Shown here in pieces: positions 1,570-10,214 of a stretch of 10,214 nt of DNA. A program made the position numbers and the translations under genes. Origin of the DNA: a virus (Duplodnaviria; Heunggongvirae; Uroviricota; Caudoviricetes); IMG/VR virus record IMGVR_UViG_2526164688_000015, positions 1-10,214 of that record, one strand, 5' to 3'. The notes under the pieces were generated by a model. The model was not told where the DNA came from, searched no databases, and saw only the letters and a list, made by a program, of their open reading frames with translations. The first letter of the stretch is position 1. Every line of letters begins with the position of its first letter.

Positions 1570-2170
1570 TTCACTGTTACCGCCATCAGCCAGCAGTTTC
1601 ATGCGTTGTGCCGAAGCCGTCGGAACGCGCATTACAGACATTCCGGTAGACCTCAACACGCTGTGGTCGCCGGACACATGCCCGGTGCATCTGCTGCCTT
1701 ATCTCGCCTGGGCATTTTCCGTTGACCGCTGGGACCGCAACTGGCCGGAGGAAACAAAGCGCCAGGTGATTCGCGATGCGTGGCTGATACACCGACACAA
1801 GGGGACCATCAGCGCACTGCGAAGAGCCGTGGAGCCTCTCGGCTACCTGATTGAAGTAAAGGAGTGGTGGCAACTCAACGAGGAGCCGGGAACATTTCGC
1901 ATTGTTGTCGGAGTACTTGATCAGGGCATCACCGATGAAATGTATCAGGAACTTGAGCGCCTTATTGCGGATGCAAAACCAGTAAGTCGCCATCTGACGG
2001 GGCTGGCGATCAGCCTGAGTGTGAACGGAAAGATTTTCGTTAGTACGGGATGCTATCACGGCGATGCCCTGACGGTTTATCCCTACACCCCGGAGTCCAT
2101 TATTGTCGAAGGGGATTATTTCCCGGCCCCGGCCATTCATTTAATTGATAATCTGAGAGTAAACGCATGA
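1562..2170 (+). CDS. I: Tail protein I (baseplate)
   Basis: ATG 1562 overlaps the J stop (ATGAGTAA) and is preceded by GAAGGTGGG. The product MSNSLLPP...IRELWSPDTCP..LLPYLAWAFSVDRWD..WPE..KR.VIRDA...HKGTI.A.RR.VEPLGYLI.V.EWW resembles recalled P2 gpI. The ORF track's start at 1529 is an in-frame upstream ATG and less likely. Confidence 0.88.
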   Translation: MSNSLLPPSASSFMRCAEAVGTRITDIPVDLNTLWSPDTCPVHLLPYLAWAFSVDRWDRNWPEETKRQVIRDAWLIHRHKGTISALRRAVEPLGYLIEVKEWWQLNEEPGTFRIVVGVLDQGITDEMYQELERLIADAKPVSRHLTGLAISLSVNGKIFVSTGCYHGDALTVYPYTPESIIVEGDYFPAPAIHLIDNLRVNA

Positions 2171-3558
2171 CAGTGAAATACTACGCCATTCTGACTAATC
2201 AGGGCGCAGCACGGCTGGCTAACGCGACGATGCTCGGCAGTAAGCTGAATCTGACGCAAATGGCCGTTGGTGATGCGAATGGTGTCTTGCCGACACCAGA
2301 CCCGGCACAGACAAAACTGATTAATCAGAAACGCATTGCACCGCTGAATCTTCTGAGTGTTGACCCGAACAACCAGAGCCAGATTATTGCGGAGCAAATC
2401 ATCCCTGAAAACGAGGGAGGATTCTGGATCCGTGAGATTGGTCTTTATGATGATGAAGGTGTACTCATTGCGGTGGCAAACTGCCCGGAAACGTACAAAC
2501 CGCAGTTGCAGGAAGGCAGTGGACGCACCCAGACTATCCGCATGATTCTGGTTGTCACGAACACCGAAGCCATCACGTTGAAAATCGACCCATCTGTGGT
2601 TCTGGCAACCCGTAAATACGTGGATGATAAAGTCCTGGAATTAAAGCTGTATGTGGATGACCAGATGAGAAACCACATTGCCGCACAGGATCCCCATACC
2701 CAGTATGCACCGAAACATAATCCGACACTCACCGGAGAGCCAAAAGCGCCGACACCGCCCGCAGGAAGTAACACCACACGGATTGCGACCACTGCGTTTA
2801 TACAGGCCGCAATTACAGCGCTGATTGGCGGTGCACCTGCCACGCTGGACACGCTGAAAGAAATTGCCGCGGCCATTAACAATGACCCGAAATTCAGTAC
2901 CACCATTAACAATGCGCTGGCACTCAAAGCGCCTCTGTCGAGCCCGGCACTTACCGGAACGCCAACAGCACCTACAGCGGCACAGTCGGCCAACAATACA
3001 CAGATTGCCACCACGGCTTTTGTGAAATCAGCAATTGCGGCAATGGTGGGTTCTGCCCCTGCGGCATTGGATACACTGAATGAACTGGCGGCGGCACTGG
3101 GGAATGATCCGAACTTTGCCACGACAATGCTTAATGCGCTGGCAGGTAAACAACCGCTGGACAATACGCTGACTAATTTGAGTGGAAAGGATGTAGCTGG
3201 TCTTCTCGCATACCTTGGTTTGGGAGAAGCCAGATATGTCATTCAGCGAGGAGCTAATGCCAATGGTGCGTGGATACGCTGGTCAGATGGTGCAATAGAA
3301 GTCTTTGGAACGGGGGGTTCTAATGATAATGGACTGGCTAAAGTCGTTTATCCAATTGCGCTACCTAAGCTTTCACGTTTTATCAGCATAGCGGAAAGAA
3401 TAGGAACGGATTATGGGGGCACATCTAATAACGTTCACGTTTCAATGATCGTGGATGACCAGGTCACTAATACCGGTTTTTATGTCCGCTGCCAGATGTA
3501 CGACGGAACACCATCAACAAGTGCTTTTTCCTGGAGGGTTTATTGTGCGCCTGTTTAA
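2167..3558 (+). CDS. H: Tail fibre protein H (conserved N-terminal/shaft part fused to the currently expressed variable tip)
   Basis: 463-aa ORF with ATG 2167 overlapping the I stop (ATGA). The N-terminus (AVGDANGVLPTPDPAQT...GGFWIREIGLYDDEGVLIAVAN.PETYKP...GSGRTQT.RM) and the shaft repeats (NSPALTGTPTAPTA...NTQIATTAF...LDTLNELAAALGNDPNFATTMLNALAGKQP) match recalled P2 gpH/Mu S-type fibres. The last roughly 110 aa lie downstream of the crossover site at 3203-3228. Confidence 0.9.
   Translation: MTVKYYAILTNQGAARLANATMLGSKLNLTQMAVGDANGVLPTPDPAQTKLINQKRIAPLNLLSVDPNNQSQIIAEQIIPENEGGFWIREIGLYDDEGVLIAVANCPETYKPQLQEGSGRTQTIRMILVVTNTEAITLKIDPSVVLATRKYVDDKVLELKLYVDDQMRNHIAAQDPHTQYAPKHNPTLTGEPKAPTPPAGSNTTRIATTAFIQAAITALIGGAPATLDTLKEIAAAINNDPKFSTTINNALALKAPLSSPALTGTPTAPTAAQSANNTQIATTAFVKSAIAAMVGSAPAALDTLNELAAALGNDPNFATTMLNALAGKQPLDNTLTNLSGKDVAGLLAYLGLGEARYVIQRGANANGAWIRWSDGAIEVFGTGGSNDNGLAKVVYPIALPKLSRFISIAERIGTDYGGTSNNVHVSMIVDDQVTNTGFYVRCQMYDGTPSTSAFSWRVYCAPV
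2728..3159 (+). repeat. Two tandem 70-aa fibre-shaft repeats (about 2728-2937 and 2950-3159, period about 222 nt) inside H
   Basis: Repeat 1 LTGEPKAPTPPAGSNTTRIATTAFIQAAITALIGGAPATLDTLKEIAAAINNDPKFSTTINNALALKAPL aligns with repeat 2 LTGTPTAPTAAQSANNTQIATTAFVKSAIAAMVGSAPAALDTLNELAAALGNDPNFATTMLNALAGKQPL. The pattern is typical of phage tail-fibre repeat units. Confidence 0.7.
3203..3228. repeat. Left recombination (crossover) site for the DNA invertase, hix/gix/pix-like, inside the H coding sequence
   Basis: 26-bp imperfect palindrome TTCTCGCATACC-TT-GGTTTGGGAGAA with the AAACC/GGTTT core typical of Hin/Gin/Pin sites. The 14 bp at 3215-3228 are a perfect inverted repeat of 4814-4827. In the H frame the site encodes ..AYLGLGE... 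Confidence 0.7.
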
Positions 3559-3742
3559 TCCTGTTACTTTGACTGAAGTAATCCCCGGTCTTCATGACGT
3601 GACCGGGGCTGTTGAATTACCAGAAGATAACTGGTTTTTTACTGCATCTGAAATCCCTGAAGGAATGGAAATATCTGTTAACGAGAAGGGAGAACCCATT
3701 CTGATTGAGATTAAACCGTCTCAGGAGGAACTGGCCAGATGA
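3545..3742 (+). CDS. Small 65-aa protein downstream of the fibre tip; possible truncated or minimal tail-fibre assembly chaperone
   Basis: GTG 3545 with a strong GGAGG RBS at 3533-3537 (7-nt spacer), overlapping the H stop. The position is exactly where a tfa gene is expected. It is too short for a canonical Tfa of about 175-200 aa, and its 3' end overlaps the convergent antisense tfa by about 30 bp. Function is inferred from position only. Confidence 0.45.
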   Translation: MRLFNPVTLTEVIPGLHDVTGAVELPEDNWFFTASEIPEGMEISVNEKGEPILIEIKPSQEELAR

Positions 3743-4316
3743 CATCTGGCGCGGTGCTGGTATCTGTTGCCATCACCGCGTCAGTGTAATCCAGCACGGC
3801 GTTAAGTCGGGTGTTTTCTGCCTGCGTCAGCTTCCGCCCGGCCTGCAATTTCAGTTGAATCAGACTAATGGAAACCATTGCAGCATCAATCAGCGACTGC
3901 CGCTGTGTTTCTGCCATGTCTACTGCTGCTCTATGCTGTGCCTCGGTATCCGTCACCCATTTCTCACCATCCCATTTATCGTATGGCGTTAACGGGGCGA
4001 TAGTGGTTGTCTTTTCAGGGTAATCACCCGGAGCTGTGATTTCTTTTGATTCTCCTGTTTCGGTGCTATAGACGATTTCACCGCGATGGTCTGGCACATA
4101 TTCCCATGAGTTAAAATCTGCAGAACGGCAAATTGCATAACCAGCTTTATATGAGCCAGGAGCATCTAAACAGGAACATGCCGGGATACCGACACCCACA
4201 GCAAGATATTCGGTTGATGTGGAAATATATTCTCGTGTTTCACCATCATAATTATAAACGGTAATATCTCCCGCCTTTGTGGCGATGAGTTCCTTATTTA
4301 ATATAGCTTTATCCAT
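3711..4316 (-). CDS. Tail-fibre assembly protein (chaperone for the alternative, currently silent fibre tip)
   Basis: 201-aa ORF. ATG at 4316-4314 overlaps the stop of the upstream tip cassette (TGATG), with a GAGGG RBS. The size and the C-terminal region (...AETQRQSLIDAA...LQAGRKLTQAENTRLNAVLDYTDAV...STAPDVIWPVPP) are typical of Tfa/gpG/U-family chaperones. Confidence 0.8.
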   Translation of the reverse strand: MDKAILNKELIATKAGDITVYNYDGETREYISTSTEYLAVGVGIPACSCLDAPGSYKAGYAICRSADFNSWEYVPDHRGEIVYSTETGESKEITAPGDYPEKTTTIAPLTPYDKWDGEKWVTDTEAQHRAAVDMAETQRQSLIDAAMVSISLIQLKLQAGRKLTQAENTRLNAVLDYTDAVMATDTSTAPDVIWPVPPETV

Positions 4317-4867
4317 CAGGCAGCCCTCACGATATAATTAAAGGCAATGTTACGGGGTCGATTTTCGTTTGCAGTTGGAACAATTCTTGAAGCATCAAGG
4401 CCAATCACTTTTGGGTAAACACCGCCCTCGGACCTTTCTGTCACCATACTTCTGACTAAGGAGAAATAACTATTGTTCGTTGAGGGGTTCAAAGGCACCA
4501 CTGCCCCCTTAAACGAGCCTACTGATTCCCATATTGAATAATTTTCGGTGTTTACAGTCTTGAACTCACCATAGATATTACGTATGGCATCGCCCTGAGC
4601 GGATAATATTGTTCTCCCCGCATCCGCACTACGCCCATCATCCCAGCCACGAATAAATTCACCGCGTAAATCAGGCAATTTATTTGTCGGGTAAGCCTTT
4701 GCCAGTTCCGGGTATTCTTCAGCAGAAAAAGCCGCACCATTGCATTTCAGCCAGCCTGTCGGCGGAGTGGCGGAAGGCCACGGAACAGGCACACCGACAG
4801 GTAATGCAGAGCCTTCTCCCAAACCAACGTTTGTGAAAATGCAGAGATAACGGGTAACTGGCATCAT
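4316..4867 (-). CDS. Alternative tail-fibre C-terminal (receptor-binding tip) cassette, silent in this orientation
   Basis: 183-aa ORF on the minus strand. After the crossover site it encodes ..NVGLGEGSALPVGVPVPWPSATPPTGWLKCNGAAFSAEEYPELAKAYP.NKLPDLRGEFIRGWDDGR..DAGR, the widespread phage tail-fibre tip/collar motif. Inversion would fuse it in frame to the H shaft at the shared GLGE junction. Only the first 9-18 codons, including the ATG-ATG start, lie outside the invertible segment. Confidence 0.75.
   Translation of the reverse strand: MMPVTRYLCIFTNVGLGEGSALPVGVPVPWPSATPPTGWLKCNGAAFSAEEYPELAKAYPTNKLPDLRGEFIRGWDDGRSADAGRTILSAQGDAIRNIYGEFKTVNTENYSIWESVGSFKGAVVPLNPSTNNSYFSLVRSMVTERSEGGVYPKVIGLDASRIVPTANENRPRNIAFNYIVRAA
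4814..4839. repeat. Right recombination (crossover) site for the DNA invertase
   Basis: TTCTCCCAAACC-AA-CGTTTGTGAAAA. The first 14 bp are a perfect inverted repeat of 3215-3228, and the central dinucleotide (AA versus TT) is consistent with inverted orientation. The site lies 56 bp upstream of the invertase start, as in Mu gin, P1 cin and e14 pin. Confidence 0.7.
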
Positions 4868-4894: not shown

Positions 4895-5485
4895 ATGCTT
4901 ATTGGTTATGTTCGCGTATCAACAAATGACCAGAACACGGAATTGCAGCGTAACGCGCTGGAGTGCGCAGGATGTGAACTGATTTTTGAAGATAAAATCA
5001 GCGGAACGAAATCAGCCAGACCGGGATTGAAAAAACTGCTCAGAACGCTATCAGAAGGAGATACGCTGGTTGTCTGGAAGCTGGACAGGCTGGGCAGGAG
5101 TATGAAACACCTGATCACGCTTATTGAGGAATTGCGGGAAAAAGGTGTTAATTTCCGTAGCCTGACGGACAGCATTGACACATCAACACCCATGGGGCGT
5201 TTCTTTTTTCACGTCATGGGAGCTTTAGCAGAAATGGAACGTGAATTAATTGTAGAGCGTACACTGGCCGGGCTGGCAGCAGCACGAGCACAGGGACGCA
5301 TTGGCGGACGTCGCCCGAAGTTGACAAAAGAACAACATGAGCAAATAGAAAGGCTGATTAAAAACGGCCATGACAGGAAACAACTGGCGATCATTTACGA
5401 CATCGGTATATCGACGATTTATCGTTATCACCCTGTAGGCGATATACAGGCTGAAGAAACAACCGGGCAGACTCAGGGAAAATAA
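4895..5485 (+). CDS. pin: Serine recombinase, DNA invertase of the Pin/Gin/Hin/Cin family
   Basis: Start at the second ATG (4895), which has an AGGGGG RBS at 4883-4888; the track's 4889 ATG has no spacer. The product MLIGYVRVSTNDQNTELQRNAL...LVVWKLDRLGRSMKHLI...FRSLTDSIDTSTPMGRFFFHVMGALAEMERELIVERT...GRIGGRRPKLT is almost diagnostic of this family, with the catalytic Ser in the YVRVSTNDQ motif and a C-terminal HTH. Confidence 0.95.
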   Translation: MLIGYVRVSTNDQNTELQRNALECAGCELIFEDKISGTKSARPGLKKLLRTLSEGDTLVVWKLDRLGRSMKHLITLIEELREKGVNFRSLTDSIDTSTPMGRFFFHVMGALAEMERELIVERTLAGLAAARAQGRIGGRRPKLTKEQHEQIERLIKNGHDRKQLAIIYDIGISTIYRYHPVGDIQAEETTGQTQGK

Positions 5486-5515
5486 AAAACCGCTAATCTG
5501 ACCATTAGCGGTTTT
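5486..5515. terminator. Bidirectional rho-independent terminator between the convergent invertase and tail-shaft operons
   Basis: Hairpin ACCGCTAAT-CTGACC-ATTAGCGGT (5489-5512) flanked by an A run on the 5' side and a T run on the 3' side. Sits in the 37-bp gap between the pin stop (5485) and the U stop (5523). Confidence 0.65.
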
Positions 5516-5522
5516 GCGTTAA

Positions 5523-6017
5523 TCAAAACAGCCCTTTAACGGAGCTGGCCGCGCTGTTAAGGGATGATGTGACCTTATCTTTGAAGCCGGACAGCATATC
5601 ACTGAACGATGAGGATTGCAGGCGCTCCCGCAAATCCTCATCACAGCGTTCAAGAGTCAGTGAAAATTCTATCTTTTTCGCCTTACCGTAGCGATCAAAC
5701 TCGGAACGGGTCGTATTCGTTTCAGTCAGCACATACATGCCGTAAATCTGCCCGACGCCATCAATCAAAGGCCAGGGTCGTCCTGTATACGCCTGCGTGG
5801 TCAGCAGCGACAGCGACACTTCGCCACCTGTAATTTCAGGATAAAGCACACCAGAAAGAACGATGCGATCATCACCTGCACCGATATACTGCCAGCTTGC
5901 TGAACGGTTAACGCGTTCATTTTTCACATGCCGCCAGCTTTTGTTTTGCTGTAACTGCTGATGCGGCAGCGTGCGCAGCTCAAAAACAAACATGCCGTAG
6001 ATCATCATCATGGCCAT
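5523..6017 (-). CDS. U: Tail protein U (P2 gpU family)
   Basis: 164-aa ORF directly downstream of the tape measure gene with a GAGGAG RBS. The motifs FELRTLP.Q.LQ....WRH...R.....Q..G.G.D.I.LSGVLYPE.TGG and GKA.KI.F.L.L resemble recalled P2 gpU. Confidence 0.85.
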   Translation of the reverse strand: MAMMMIYGMFVFELRTLPHQQLQQNKSWRHVKNERVNRSASWQYIGAGDDRIVLSGVLYPEITGGEVSLSLLTTQAYTGRPWPLIDGVGQIYGMYVLTETNTTRSEFDRYGKAKKIEFSLTLERCDEDLRERLQSSSFSDMLSGFKDKVTSSLNSAASSVKGLF

Positions 6018-6023
6018 GACTCC

Positions 6024-8867
6024 TCAATCTTTATCGTAAAAACTGCCACGCCCGGCACGGGCGCGCCGTTCCATTTCTGCCCTGACCATTTCACCGACCA
6101 GTTTCGCCAGTTCGCGGGGATTCTGCGTAACAACGTTATGCAGATGAACATGAATTTCACCACCAAATCCGGAGGCAACAGGCTCCCGGTTACGGGAAGT
6201 TACAGGAACTGATGCCACTGGAGATCGTATAGCCTCCGCCACCGGGCGGGAGCTGGCCGCAACAACAGGGACCAGCGCCGGAGGCAGCGGAGCCGGGACC
6301 ACGGGTGTGATATTAATTGCGGGGGCAGGCTTACTGACCTGCGCAATCTTCCGCTCCTGCCACTCCCCACGAACAGCAAGTGCTCGGGGCAGGTTTTTAA
6401 AGACAATATCGCCGGGGCCAATGCGTTTTTTCGTCTCCTCAACCAGCTTACCTGTGTTATCAGCAATTTTGCTGAGTCTGCGCAGCGTACCGGTATTGCT
6501 GTCTGTGAGCGGTTTATTGTCTTTGGGGTTATCACCTCCGGTGCCATTGCCATTTTCCACAGGCTTCGGCGGATTGATTTTCGCCAGGTCCCCCTGAAGC
6601 AAGGCAACCTTGTCCTGAAGAATGGCCGCACGCTGTGCGTCTTCGATTTTCTTGCGCGCCCTTTCCGCTTCATCCGGAAGCACACCAAGCTTTTCAAGTA
6701 TCCACGCCAGCGTATCCAGCAACATTTTTGCAGGTGTCAGAACAAGTTGTAACGCACCGCCAAGAACGTTACCGAATATCTCGCCAGCACTGGTACATTT
6801 ATCCAGAGTTTCCTTGCTGGACTCCATCGGTGACAGCAGCGATTTAAACCAGTTAAACACCTGGCTGATCCCACTCCCGATTGCGTCAAAAACAGGACCA
6901 AACCGTTCAAAGGTTTCGCGCAACGGGGTCAGCCTTTCCATAATCCCGCTGAACACCCCGGCAAAAAATGCCCTGATGGGATCCCAGTATTTCCAGATAA
7001 GAACGGCAGCTCCGGCAAGCGCAGCCACGATAAGACCAACCGGACTGAACAACGCCCCGATAGCGCCTCCCAGTAAAGAAACGGAACCCGTCACCATTCC
7101 CCATAGTGCTGGCAGAACCCTGACAGCATTCATTGATCCGGTCAGGAGGGAAAAACCAAGACGCAGTTTTGCCAGCGGGCCAGCAAGCACACCAATAGCC
7201 AGCGACAACGAGCCAACCGTTGCAGTCATTGCCAGCAGTGCACCGCCTGCAATCAGTAGCTGGCGCGTCAGTGCGGGATGGGCCTGCGCCAGCGCCGTCA
7301 CCTTTGATACCACACGCGTGAGCCACTGCGTGACAGAACGCAGCGGACCGTCAATCAGATCTGCAATGCGGATGCGCAACCCTTCCCATGCACTGCTGAG
7401 TGATTTCAGATCGCCGTCAAGGTTGTTGGCCATAACCTTTGCCGTGCGTTCAGCCTCACCGCGCGCGCCTTCAAGTTCTTTTCTCAGTTTGGGTAAGGAG
7501 CCGTCACCTGCCGCATCAACGAGGGCCATAAATGATGTGAAAGCCTCTTCTCCGGCAATGTCCTTAAAGAACGATACCCGGTCAACTTCCCCGTATTTGC
7601 GGGTAGCTTTATAAAGGTCAGCCAGCACATCCTCCATCGGGCGCATTTTGCCCCCGGCATCCGAGACAGACACGCCAAGCTCTTTCAGCGCCTCTGCTGC
7701 CGCCTTTGGCGGTGATGCCAGACGAGCCAGGCTGGCACGCATTGCCGTACCAGCATCACTCCCCCTGATCCCCATATTCGCTAGCACGCCCGCCATCGCT
7801 GCGGCCTGCTCCAGCGATATTCCCAGCTTACCCGCCACCGGACCTGCATATTTCATGGTTTCACCCAGTGCGCGAAGGTCAGTGTTGGTACGGGTAAACG
7901 CTGCGGTGAGTGTGTCGCCGACCCGGTCCATCTGGTCAGCAGAAAGACCGAACTGCGTCAGAATATTTGAGCCAATATCCGCCGTCTCACCGAGGTCCAT
8001 ACCGCCAGCCGTTGCCATGCTCAGTACGCCAGGGAGCGCAGCCTGAATGGCCTGCGGTGTGAAGCCAGCCATTGCAAGAAATGCCTGCCCACTGGCGGCA
8101 TCGCCTGCGGTGAACTGCGTTTCAGAGCCCAGTTTTAACGCCTGCTCACGCAGCGCCTTAAACTGCGGGCTGTTTTTGTCGATTCGCGTCAGTGCCTGAA
8201 CGCGGGACATCTCTTTCCCGAACCCGATCGCAGGCTGCAAAAAACGCCCGGCAGCATAGCCGCCCGCCGCTGCCGCACCAATTGCCAGCGCACCACCTGT
8301 TTTCAGTTTTCCCGCTGTTTCCTGCGCGCGCGAATACCGCTCACGCGCCCGCGTTACACGCGCAAGCGCCTGCCGTTCGCGTTCAAGCTGGTTGTTGTAC
8401 TGTTCGGTGCGTCTGATGGCCTGCTGGATGGTGTTATCGCTGCCTGTCAGGGAAATGCCGTGGCGTTTCAGCTCTCCGCCAAGCTCCCGCATTTTCTGAA
8501 TTTCCCGTGTGCGCGATTCATTCAGGCGTTCAAGCCGGGTGCTTAACTGCTGCATCAGCTTTTGTTGTTTTTCGCTGAGCACTGTACCCGTGCGTTGTAA
8601 CTGATTAAGGGCGTTAAGCTGGCGTCGTGCTTTCACGATACCCGCATCCGCTTTACTGACAGCGTCCCGGGCGCGCTCAAATGAACGCGCCTGACGCTCG
8701 AGATTTTTGATCGCCCCCTGCGTTCGCTGGATGGAGTCACCAAACTGCCCCATCAGGCGGCGGGCGTTTTCGGCAGGCCGGGTCAGCCTGTCAACGGCGC
8801 TGAAAGCGCCCCGGATGTCAAGAGTCTTCATTATCTGCATTCCCGCTGCGAAGTGCCGCCCGCTCAC
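6024..8867 (-). CDS. T: Tail tape measure protein T
   Basis: 947-aa ORF immediately downstream of E/E'. It has a coiled-coil-like N-terminal region, a long central hydrophobic Ala/Gly/Leu-rich region and a Pro-rich C-terminal segment. The start is uncertain: GTG 8867, or ATG 8840 or 8831. It overlaps the end of the E' frame, as in P2. Confidence 0.9.
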   Translation of the reverse strand: MSGRHFAAGMQIMKTLDIRGAFSAVDRLTRPAENARRLMGQFGDSIQRTQGAIKNLERQARSFERARDAVSKADAGIVKARRQLNALNQLQRTGTVLSEKQQKLMQQLSTRLERLNESRTREIQKMRELGGELKRHGISLTGSDNTIQQAIRRTEQYNNQLERERQALARVTRARERYSRAQETAGKLKTGGALAIGAAAAGGYAAGRFLQPAIGFGKEMSRVQALTRIDKNSPQFKALREQALKLGSETQFTAGDAASGQAFLAMAGFTPQAIQAALPGVLSMATAGGMDLGETADIGSNILTQFGLSADQMDRVGDTLTAAFTRTNTDLRALGETMKYAGPVAGKLGISLEQAAAMAGVLANMGIRGSDAGTAMRASLARLASPPKAAAEALKELGVSVSDAGGKMRPMEDVLADLYKATRKYGEVDRVSFFKDIAGEEAFTSFMALVDAAGDGSLPKLRKELEGARGEAERTAKVMANNLDGDLKSLSSAWEGLRIRIADLIDGPLRSVTQWLTRVVSKVTALAQAHPALTRQLLIAGGALLAMTATVGSLSLAIGVLAGPLAKLRLGFSLLTGSMNAVRVLPALWGMVTGSVSLLGGAIGALFSPVGLIVAALAGAAVLIWKYWDPIRAFFAGVFSGIMERLTPLRETFERFGPVFDAIGSGISQVFNWFKSLLSPMESSKETLDKCTSAGEIFGNVLGGALQLVLTPAKMLLDTLAWILEKLGVLPDEAERARKKIEDAQRAAILQDKVALLQGDLAKINPPKPVENGNGTGGDNPKDNKPLTDSNTGTLRRLSKIADNTGKLVEETKKRIGPGDIVFKNLPRALAVRGEWQERKIAQVSKPAPAINITPVVPAPLPPALVPVVAASSRPVAEAIRSPVASVPVTSRNREPVASGFGGEIHVHLHNVVTQNPRELAKLVGEMVRAEMERRARAGRGSFYDKD

Positions 8868-9356
8868 GCCAGCTAACCACTTCGCCGGGCGTCATCATGA
8901 AGATTTCGGCGGGCGACCAGTTAAAAATGGCGGCAATATCCGCCACCAGATCTTCGATGTGCTCAAAGCACACCAGGGTGATTACGCTGCCGTCTCCTGC
9001 ACGCTCTTCGCGCCAGAGTCTGGCTCGCTCATAAAATTTACAGCCACAGCGCACAACTGAATAAAATCGCGTGACGACATTTTTTTAATCATCACTTCAT
9101 CCAGTCGTGGCGAAGTCACGCGAGGCAACAGCGTGAACATGGTATCCGCTTTCAGATTCAGCACATCAGACAGCGACAGACCACGCAGGGATCCCGCCTG
9201 CTCAATAGCCCCGGTGATTTCCACATATGTGATTTTTTCGGCACCACGCTCAATTGGCCGGGAAAGTTTTACACCACGTTCGACAGCCATATCCTCACCT
9301 GCCGTCACATCATCCGCTACGGTGTTATTCCGGGTTTCAGTATCGATGTCTTTCAT
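8818..9356 (-). CDS. Tail assembly chaperone E+E' (predicted programmed -1 frameshift product)
   Basis: The ORF at 8818-9054 is in the -1 frame relative to E by coordinate arithmetic. That frame opens just after a TAA at 9087-9085 and runs to a stop at 8818, overlapping the T start. An A7 tract at 9080-9086 lies in the overlap. The architecture matches the P2 E/E' and lambda G/GT paradigm. Confidence 0.6.
8982..9356 (-). CDS. E: Tail assembly chaperone E (zero-frame product)
   Basis: 124-aa ORF with ATG 9356 and an AAGGAGA RBS. It lies between the tube and tape measure genes, which is the conserved position of the frameshifting chaperone pair. Confidence 0.8.
   Translation of the reverse strand: MKDIDTETRNNTVADDVTAGEDMAVERGVKLSRPIERGAEKITYVEITGAIEQAGSLRGLSLSDVLNLKADTMFTLLPRVTSPRLDEVMIKKMSSRDFIQLCAVAVNFMSEPDSGAKSVQETAA
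9080..9086 (-). other. Candidate slippery site (A7 on the mRNA) for the E to E' -1 frameshift
   Basis: The E frame reads ATT-AAA-AAA-ATG (I-K-K-M). The homopolymeric A7 run sits exactly where the -1 frame becomes open. Confidence 0.5.
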
Positions 9357-9411: not shown

Positions 9412-9924
9412 TCAGCCAAGCCCAAGCGCGGAGCGAATGCGGTCAGGCACAATGTCCTTGCCGTCCTTCCGGTAGATGTGGTTCAACAGGTCGATTTCCC
9501 ACAGCGGGCGATCGTTAACACTCAGCTTGTAGTAGGTGTTTTTGACAGCGTATGTGTGTGATGTGGCTTCGCCCTGTTTGGCCTCCCCCATATCAATTTC
9601 CGTCACACGCCCGCGCATCTCGATTTCATACAGATCGCTTTCTGCATCGGTGTAATATTCACCCGCAAAACGCAGCAGCGTGCCGTCAATCGTGCCGCCA
9701 TACTTAAGGAACAGTGCACGAACAGCTCCACCCATGACAAAGCTCGCATCAAGCGCGGAGTCGTCCAGACCGAGATCAATACTTACCGCCCCCATCATGC
9801 CACCACCACGATAACTGTCGGTTTTGCGCGTCAGTTTGGGCGGCGTGACGGATGTCACTTTACCCACTTCGTTTTCACCATCCACAAACAACGTAAAAAA
9901 GCGAAGATGTTTTGGTACAGCCAT
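9412..9924 (-). CDS. FII: Major tail tube protein FII
   Basis: 170-aa ORF with ATG at 9924-9922 overlapping the sheath stop (TGATG) and a GGGAGG RBS. The size and position immediately after the sheath gene fit P2 FII-family tube proteins. Confidence 0.88.
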   Translation of the reverse strand: MAVPKHLRFFTLFVDGENEVGKVTSVTPPKLTRKTDSYRGGGMMGAVSIDLGLDDSALDASFVMGGAVRALFLKYGGTIDGTLLRFAGEYYTDAESDLYEIEMRGRVTEIDMGEAKQGEATSHTYAVKNTYYKLSVNDRPLWEIDLLNHIYRKDGKDIVPDRIRSALGLG

Positions 9925-10214
9925 CAGGCACCTCCCAGCACCGCAAATGCGGGACCAAAGAATTCATCAGTAAACGTCTGGTAAAGCTCCATGTCTTCCA
10001 GCGGGGGAACGGGCGTATATTTGTAGCGAATACGCACACGCCCCTGACGTAAATCCGTGGTGCCGTTATCCACCACGTCATACCAGCACTCCGCGCCAAT
10101 CAGTTTCCCGGCAGTAACCAGTGAATCCAGTTTTGCCCTGATGGCACTGATAACATCCTTCACGTTCGCAGGCGTCAGTGGACTGTCGATGGTTTCAAAC
10201 TGCGCTTCCGCAAT
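9924..10214 (-). CDS. FI: Tail sheath protein FI, C-terminal part (5' end lies outside the window)
   Basis: The reading frame is open from the window edge (10214) down to TGA at 9926-9924. The C-terminus ..WYDVVDNGTTDLRQGRVRIRYKYTPVPPLEDMELYQTFTDEFF.. and its position upstream of the tube gene fit contractile sheath proteins. Confidence 0.85.
   Translation of the reverse strand: MAEAQFETIDSPLTPANVKDVISAIRAKLDSLVTAGKLIGAECWYDVVDNGTTDLRQGRVRIRYKYTPVPPLEDMELYQTFTDEFFGPAFAVLGGA

Follow-up and report, generated by a model that had tools for sequence, protein, structure and literature searches.

The window considered here, i.e. the whole analysed stretch of 10,214 nucleotides from the caudoviricete record IMGVR_UViG_2526164688_000015, raises the question of how an almost complete set of P2-type tail genes comes to be divided between two operons that run against each other, with a DNA invertase at their junction and no D gene next to U. 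The sequence-only reading of the window saw in this a non-P2 architecture, proposed that a gpD-like hub gene must be elsewhere or absent, and left prophage, tailocin and remnant as options for the nature of the element.

Concerning the gene content, all members of the P2-type tail gene set but D were found in the window by the Pfam scan, and no GPD-domain ORF came up in any part of it, either in that scan or in the list of open reading frames. The rightward genes, with several details taken from the near-identical locus L013 described below, are the following:

1–322, + strand: 3′ part of gpV, the baseplate spike, cut by the left end of the window (its counterpart in L013, at 7590–8156, carries PF04717/PF18715)
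319–669, + strand: gpW, gp25-like baseplate wedge (ORF; PF04965 in L013)
673–1569, + strand: gpJ, baseplate protein (PF04865, E 3e-19)
1562–2170, + strand: gpI, tail protein (PF09684, E 3.5e-53; start taken from the gene call in L013)
2167–3558, + strand: gpH, tail fibre, 463 aa in the present orientation (PF12571, E 9e-63)
3545–3742, + strand: 65-aa ORF 3′ of H in the present orientation (gene call in L013–L018)

The tail fibre gpH is composed of a constant part reaching up to a crossover site and of a variable C-terminus lying within an invertible segment. The 65-aa ORF occupies the place expected for a fibre chaperone; no family match was found for it in Pfam or NCBIfam. The genes of the opposite strand, given here from U towards FI, are as follows:

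5523–6017, − strand: gpU, the final gene of the leftward sheath/tube/tape-measure operon (PF06995, E 5.5e-39)
6024–8831, − strand: gpT, tape measure protein, 935 aa according to the call in L013 (PF10145, E 3.7e-58)
8818–9356, − strand: E/E′ tail assembly chaperone pair in overlapping frames (PF06528, E 1e-12; weak PF10109 match)
8982–9356, − strand: gpE, overlapping the GpE-family frame 8818–8973/9054
9412–9924, − strand: gpFII, tail tube (PF04985, E 2e-45)
9924–10214, − strand: 3′ portion of the gene for gpFI, tail sheath, truncated where the window ends on the right (its homologue in P88 has sheath domains)

The open frame of gpT reaches 8867, beyond the called end at 8831. The ORFs and the Pfam matches thus confirm the gene identities and strands of the sequence-only reading, i.e. 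convergent tail operons with the invertase at the junction and with U as the last gene before a hairpin. V-W-J-I-H (+) and FI-FII-E-E′-T-U (−) converge on the invertase gene (4895–5485) and on the following element:

5486–5515, no strand: perfect 12-bp-stem hairpin AAAACCGCTAAT-N6-ATTAGCGGTTTT, with A-run and T-run flanks

The hairpin occupies the 37-bp gap between the stop codon of the invertase and that of U, and its folding energy lies near −15 to −16 kcal/mol for both strands (z-scores versus shuffles, −3.5 and −2.9). The tail on the − strand, TTTTTTATTTT, is that of a strong terminator and this strand was flagged by the terminator scan, the + strand tail, TTTTGCGTT, being weaker. Since it is flanked by both an A-run and a T-run, the hairpin could halt transcripts arriving from both sides, and it is predicted to be a bidirectional intrinsic terminator. 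Hairpins right 3′ of the U stop codon are present in most members of the clade delimited below, their sequences being unrelated to each other.

The invertase belongs to a cassette made up of the following features:

3203–3229, no strand: left crossover site TTCTCGCATACCTTGGTTTGGGAGAAG (inverted repeat I1, 85% complementary)
3711–4316, − strand: alternative Tfa (tail-fibre assembly protein), silent in the present orientation (PF02413, E 6.7e-30)
4316–4867, − strand: cassette for an alternative C-terminus of the fibre, containing a collar domain and silent at present (PF07484, E 1e-15)
4813–4839, no strand: right crossover site of the invertible segment (inverted repeat; crossover-site search)
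4895–5485, + strand: serine DNA invertase of the Gin/Cin/Pin/Hin family, 196 aa (PF00239, E 5e-52; PF02796 (HTH_7), E 3e-12)

In the whole locus there are only two crossover sites, both bounding the fibre segment (none expected by chance), so that the invertible segment covers 3203–4839, i.e. 1.6 kb. The N-terminus of the invertase, MLIGYVRVSTNDQ, contains the active-site serine Ser9, and the protein matches the Gin structures 3UJ3 and 4M6F with E about 1e-90 (phmmer). When the inversion of the segment was simulated, H became joined in frame to the silent cassette, yielding a 519-aa fibre. The inversion would therefore exchange the C-terminus of the fibre together with its chaperone, and the invertase with its 1.6-kb segment is, by all its predicted parts, a conventional host-range switch. 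It resembles the Mu G/Gin, P1 C/Cin and e14 P/Pin systems, in which a serine invertase likewise lies beside a segment with inverted crossover sites of ~26 bp and the inversion likewise exchanges the fibre C-terminus and an assembly protein; unlike those, the switch of the window is situated within a P2-type genome at the place where two late operons converge.

As far as the missing D is concerned, an exact-protein look-up with the U and H proteins of the window retrieved the locus L013 (GCA_013799825.1, CP056936.1) and its sister loci. L013 equals the window at 10,213 of 10,214 bases (99.99%), two further loci, L018 and L017, have 2 and 9 mismatches, respectively, and the best match among the RefSeq complete E. 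coli genomes is 97.4% identical to the window. It should be pointed out that the window itself stops within FI, the position of D being taken from this 99.99%-identical public locus and from its relatives rather than from the window's own flanks. In L013, the start codon of FI is found 894 bp outside the window on its right side (window-equivalent about 11108) and 157 bp past that codon, on the opposite strand, there is a gpD homologue of 369 aa (+ strand; window-equivalent about 11266–12375, i.e. ~1.05 kb from the right-hand border of the window; PF05954, E 3e-17), exhibiting 49% identity over 376 aa to D of phage pro483 and followed by ogr (PF04606) and then hok. The gene is thus elsewhere and not absent, an intact D lying beyond FI. 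Although it adjoins the window, it does not restore the canonical synteny: an FI-to-U-D series co-directional with V-W-J-I-H is found neither in the window nor in L013. The P2-type order places D after U on the same strand, as in pro483, and tblastn with an artificial fusion of U and D as the query revealed the two genes adjacent and on one strand in 388 of the 521 phage records; the earlier view of the architecture as not being that of P2 therefore stands.

Upstream, L013 carries the large terminase, scaffold, capsid, small terminase, head completion and X genes, as well as those for a holin, an M15 endolysin, LysB/LysC, R and S. Its close relative L003 additionally possesses an integrase, repressor/cox-type regulators, a replication endonuclease and a portal protein. 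Because of the terminase, capsid, lysis and tail-completion genes in L013, the element is, to judge from its gene content, a complete P88-type prophage rather than a tailocin or remnant.

The closest described relatives are Escherichia phage P88 (Xuanwuvirus P88, NC_026014) and P884B11, both Xuanwuvirus, the Gemsvirus 500465-2, and 503458, 520873 and Citrobacter phage PhiSM, which exhibit 92–96% identity to the window over 71–85% of its length, these values referring to the 10-kb window. The genus criterion of the ICTV is ~70% identity across the whole genome. The maps of these phages are identical to that of the window, including the segment and the invertase and then D, ogr and hok, and the P88 gene adjoining FI carries PF05954. 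The variable fibre C-termini and the chaperones within the invertible segment differ between them and the window, which explains the coverage below 100%; the active fibre of the window is short, followed by the above-mentioned 65-aa ORF. A more distant pair, Salmonella phage SEN4 (Senquatrovirus) and Klebsiella phage Kp4871-3 (Reginaelenavirus), shares the flipped block; in both, FI points away from D and ogr and the FI-D spacer contains a T(G/C)T-N12-ACA box, but the pair has neither the invertase nor the invertible segment, their D being 63–70% identical to the D of the window type. In SEN4, a macro-domain gene lies between the fibre and its chaperone.

The same architecture is widely distributed. 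At least 80% of the window was found in one piece in 131 complete E. coli genomes, and FI on the − strand faces away from D on the + strand in all eight loci with an identical U protein as well as in five of six with an identical H protein, the sixth, L016, being truncated by IS26. When a set with a single genome for each bacterial species was scanned with the D protein, 47 loci were obtained, distributed over about 20 genera of Enterobacterales, and the arrangement (V W J I H)+ (U T E FII FI)− D+ ogr+ was seen in every one of the 43 with enough flank. Among the matches listed in the tblastn search, every record with a D at least 63% identical to that of the window type matched through D only, its U being located in another part of the record. 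The flip is common to four classified genera—Xuanwuvirus, Gemsvirus, Senquatrovirus and Reginaelenavirus—and the flipped architecture is a fixed, clade-wide character.

The canonical counterpart is represented by the Peduovirus pro483 (NC_028943), which has the same tail genes and a fibre switch whose invertase gene comes straight after the fibre segment; next come FI, FII, E, E′, T, U, D and ogr, all rightward, whereas the window reverses FI to U. Invertase carriers of the pro483 kind with the canonical order also include S164 and the P2 from the O157:H43 strain T22. As read from these maps, the layout of the window type is the P2 order with the FI-to-U block alone reversed in place, D and ogr being untouched. 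The FI-to-U block would thus have been reversed relative to P2 while D and ogr kept their ancestral orientation, so that FI and D became divergent neighbours and U came to run head-on into the fibre operon. The identities of the window-type proteins to those of pro483 are given below; the remaining structural proteins of the two types are 35–54% identical.

Block proteins: FI 46%, FII 42%, E 35%, T 35%, U 47%
Flanking proteins: D 49%, V 46%, W 44%, N 43%
Fibre and invertase region: I 75%, N-terminal 257 aa of H 95%, invertase 82%

Based on the above results, the locus is very probably best explained as the tail module of an intact P88-type prophage (Peduoviridae, the Xuanwuvirus/Gemsvirus group), in which the six-gene block FI-FII-E-E′-T-U has been flipped in place, the two operons presumably sharing one terminator and the cassette being optional. 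Of the other explanations, two question the nature of the element or the reality of its layout. A tailocin, or a degraded prophage remnant without the hub gene D, would agree with the lack of a GPD-domain ORF in the window, with the annotation of just an 801-nt VgrG/Pvc8-family gene by RefSeq at the D position of L003 (the call of the same stretch in L015 is 369 aa long), and with the degraded state of some relatives, L005, L009 and L016 being truncated by IS26. The flanks of L013, with the intact 369-aa D, ogr, the terminase, scaffold and capsid genes, the lysis genes, R and S, led to this reading being dropped as extremely improbable; an R-type tailocin has the genes for tail and lysis but lacks those for capsid, terminase, portal and replication, and genes of the latter kinds are carried by L013 and L003. 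The phages P88 and PhiSM, sharing the same map, are moreover viable, P88 being inducible and lysing a range of E. coli strains (PMC5285337) and PhiSM, given as 76.8% identical to P88, being spontaneously active (PMC6456863). That the convergent layout could be an assembly artefact, e.g. a mis-join at the invertible segment, was a reservation attached to the sequence-only reading, and such segments, one of which adjoins the junction, can indeed mislead assemblers; since, however, the junction recurs in independent assemblies—closed chromosomes, phage genomes sequenced by several laboratories, the 131 E. coli genomes and the 43 loci, most of which have no invertible segment at all—the probability of an artefact is practically negligible.

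The remaining two explanations accept the flip and concern its origin. According to one of them, the serine invertase turns over the entire block from FI to U, or did so in the past, by means of a secondary site, its gene being located exactly at one boundary of the block. Yet 36 of the 43 loci of the clade, SEN4 and Kp4871-3 included, are flipped without possessing an invertase, both crossover sites belong to the fibre segment, and a search at the locus found no inverted repeats bracketing the block; in addition, the cassette is a recent import (82–95% identity to Peduovirus), in contrast to the block with its 35–47%. With no further crossover sites and with the invertase-free members of the clade settling the matter, this very improbable course of events was set aside: the invertase, present in only seven of 43 loci, is independent of the flip and did not cause it. 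The other explanation holds that FI to U came from a different contractile-tail phage, as a foreign module inserted in the reversed direction, in favour of which it can be said that phage genomes are mosaic and that the junctions of an old rearrangement do not reveal exactly how it arose. Against it, the block has diverged from the P2 type (35–47%) to the same extent as D, V, W, N and O on its flanks (35–49%), the profile showing no step at either boundary of the block; within the clade, the divergence of FI, FII and U goes along with that of D (62–70% in Kp4871-3, 48–63% in SEN4); and the P2-specific gene content and internal order, including the E/E′ overlap, are fully kept. The flat profile points to vertical inheritance of the block and fits an old in-place inversion better than the import of a foreign module, which is thus not favoured and is considered improbable. 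Flipping in place should be understood here as the most parsimonious reading of an old event, at the junctions of which there are no scars.

The fibre and invertase region has had a different history. The far higher identity of I, of the N-terminus of H and of the invertase to their pro483 counterparts indicates that the fibre/invertase cassette has been exchanged recently and horizontally between the canonical and the flipped lineages. The cassette is optional cargo parked at the point of convergence: an invertase is situated between H and U in seven of 43 informative loci of the clade, and IS26 or a glycosyltransferase-like gene occupies the same spot in others, in agreement with the earlier suggestion that the junction is a position for accessory cargo.

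With regard to late transcription, a model comprising the promoters, read-through into the invertase gene and termination in both directions can be outlined from sequence motifs. Rightward transcription would pass through V-W-J-I-H and probably extend across the silent fibre cassette and the gene of the invertase as well, leftward transcription would start from an Ogr-type promoter in the FI-D spacer and proceed from FI to U, and both would stop at the one shared hairpin (5486–5515). As a consequence of the flip, the FI operon no longer carries D and ogr, which would form a separate rightward unit. The sequence T(G/C)T-N12-ACA has the form of the activator site of P2 Ogr/delta. A box of this form was found in the FI-D spacers of 42 of 46 clade loci, as a single copy in 41 of them and as two overlapping matches in L039, the chance expectation being estimated at about 0.17 boxes per spacer and the N12 part differing widely between genera. 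Its distance to the start codon of FI is always 78–88 bp, that to D ranging from 48 to 112 bp; the constancy of the former argues for the box being the activator site of PF. SEN4 and the Klebsiella phage Kp4871-3 have the exact TGT-N12-ACA form, which was not found in the 21.4 kb of L013, where the P88-type spacer reads TCT-N12-ACA. The P88-type box, GTTCT-N12-ACAAC, recurs in the divergent spacer between the terminase and scaffold genes (P-O).

It is conceivable, albeit rather doubtful, that a single dyad-symmetric box of the Ogr type serves two divergent late promoters, the old PF leftward and a new one for D and ogr rightward, with the P88-type variant having the half-site TCT in place of TGT. 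Birkeland, Lindqvist and Christie reportedly described in 1991 that late ogr transcripts of P2 arise by read-through from PF. With FI to U flipped, such read-through into ogr is impossible. If one box did serve both directions, ogr would be under the control of its own product only via this shared box, and late transcription would have been rewired by the flip.

The architecture is already known in so far as the P88-type genomes are public, annotated and classified, and it is plain on their maps. Wording on inversion, orientation or rearrangement was not found in the papers on P88, PhiSM and SEN4 or in the 2026 survey of P2-like phages in Communications Biology, an earlier description elsewhere being possible, and no mention of inversion, invertase, gpD, gpFI or tail fiber was found in the 2026 hotspot study in NAR.

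For annotation, the results mean that the window should be described as a tail module belonging to a Peduoviridae prophage of the P88 type rather than as a tailocin devoid of D, and that rules of P2-like synteny expecting D after U will mis-score a large clade found across many genera of Enterobacterales. Beyond correct annotation, the finding is of little consequence, its modest interest consisting in the effect that splitting the FETUD operon may have on the regulation of Ogr-dependent late transcription.

The spacer between FI and D, which diverge from each other in the flipped tail module, contains a T(G/C)T-N12-ACA box in 42 of the 46 clade loci, located 78-88 bp from the FI ATG and occurring singly in 41. 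Its half-site reads TCT in the P88-type phages versus TGT in SEN4 and the Klebsiella phages. In L013, the public locus matching the window at 10,213 of 10,214 bases and carrying its flanks, the extended motif GTTCT-N12-ACAACAAAA is common to this spacer and the terminase-scaffold (P-O) spacer, and a third copy is found inside a tail gene:

L013 19020-19041 (approximately window-equivalent 11186-11207, outside the window): extended motif, FI-D spacer
L013 1579-1600: second copy, terminase-scaffold (P-O) spacer
Window 6746-6767, - strand: third copy, GTTCTTGGCGGTGCGTTACAAC, within the tape-measure gene T

The box of the FI-D spacer is probably an Ogr-type late activator site, and possibly one such box is common to the divergent FI and D promoters. 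As for the copy in T, it points the way the gene is transcribed and precedes U by about 730 nt; the chance expectation for extended-motif matches is, by our own estimate, about 0.08 in the 21-kb locus. It is unchanged in all 12 of the closest P88-type loci checked, but the site is coding sequence, and a one-base difference is seen in both L021 and L022. This copy may act as an internal late promoter, or its presence may be coincidental.

On the same strand, the E gene overlaps a GpE-family frame, the usual layout of the programmed-frameshift E/E' tail chaperone pair:

Window 8818-9356, - strand: E gene (124 aa) with the overlapping GpE-family frame

D genes 98-99% identical to enterobacterial D also occur in two Firmicutes-labelled assemblies, L022 (a contig of Vagococcus sp. 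WN89Y, with the full flipped tail module) and L063 (a contig of a Planococcaceae MAG), these being most likely contaminating enterobacterial contigs.

The D-ogr gap is a variable cargo slot in the L003/L015, L005, L006 and L014 prophages, and in three further P88-type prophages a SASA/DUF6645 gene replaces the lysis cassette found there in others:

L003 32003-33918 (= L015 20837 onward), one E. coli prophage: ThsB-TIR and SIR2/STALD pair (Thoeris-like), D-ogr gap
L005 2510-3532, L006 2793-3458, L014 20420 onward: unannotated genes of 340, 221 and 930 aa, respectively, D-ogr gap
L004, L007, L010, 18685-20495: 625-aa SASA/DUF6645 (sialate O-acetylesterase-like) gene, directly upstream of R

The two orientations of the invertible fibre segment (window 3203-4839) are unequal: the active one yields a fibre of 463 aa and, behind it, a 65-aa ORF (3545-3742) without a family match, whereas the silent one yields a collar-domain fibre of 519 aa together with a Tfa chaperone of standard type (201 aa). 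IS26 has repeatedly inserted within or next to the silent cassette that adjoins the invertase, and in L005, L009 and L016 it marks a truncation of the prophage:

L003 23642-24346, L005 11831-12535, L009 13216-13920, L016 12476-13180: IS26 copies at the silent fibre cassette
L006 10592-11770, one relative: gene of 392 aa immediately past the U stop, matching glycosyltransferase-9 weakly

Since the latter gene occupies the invertase position, it supports the convergence point of the rightward and leftward tail genes as a cargo slot.
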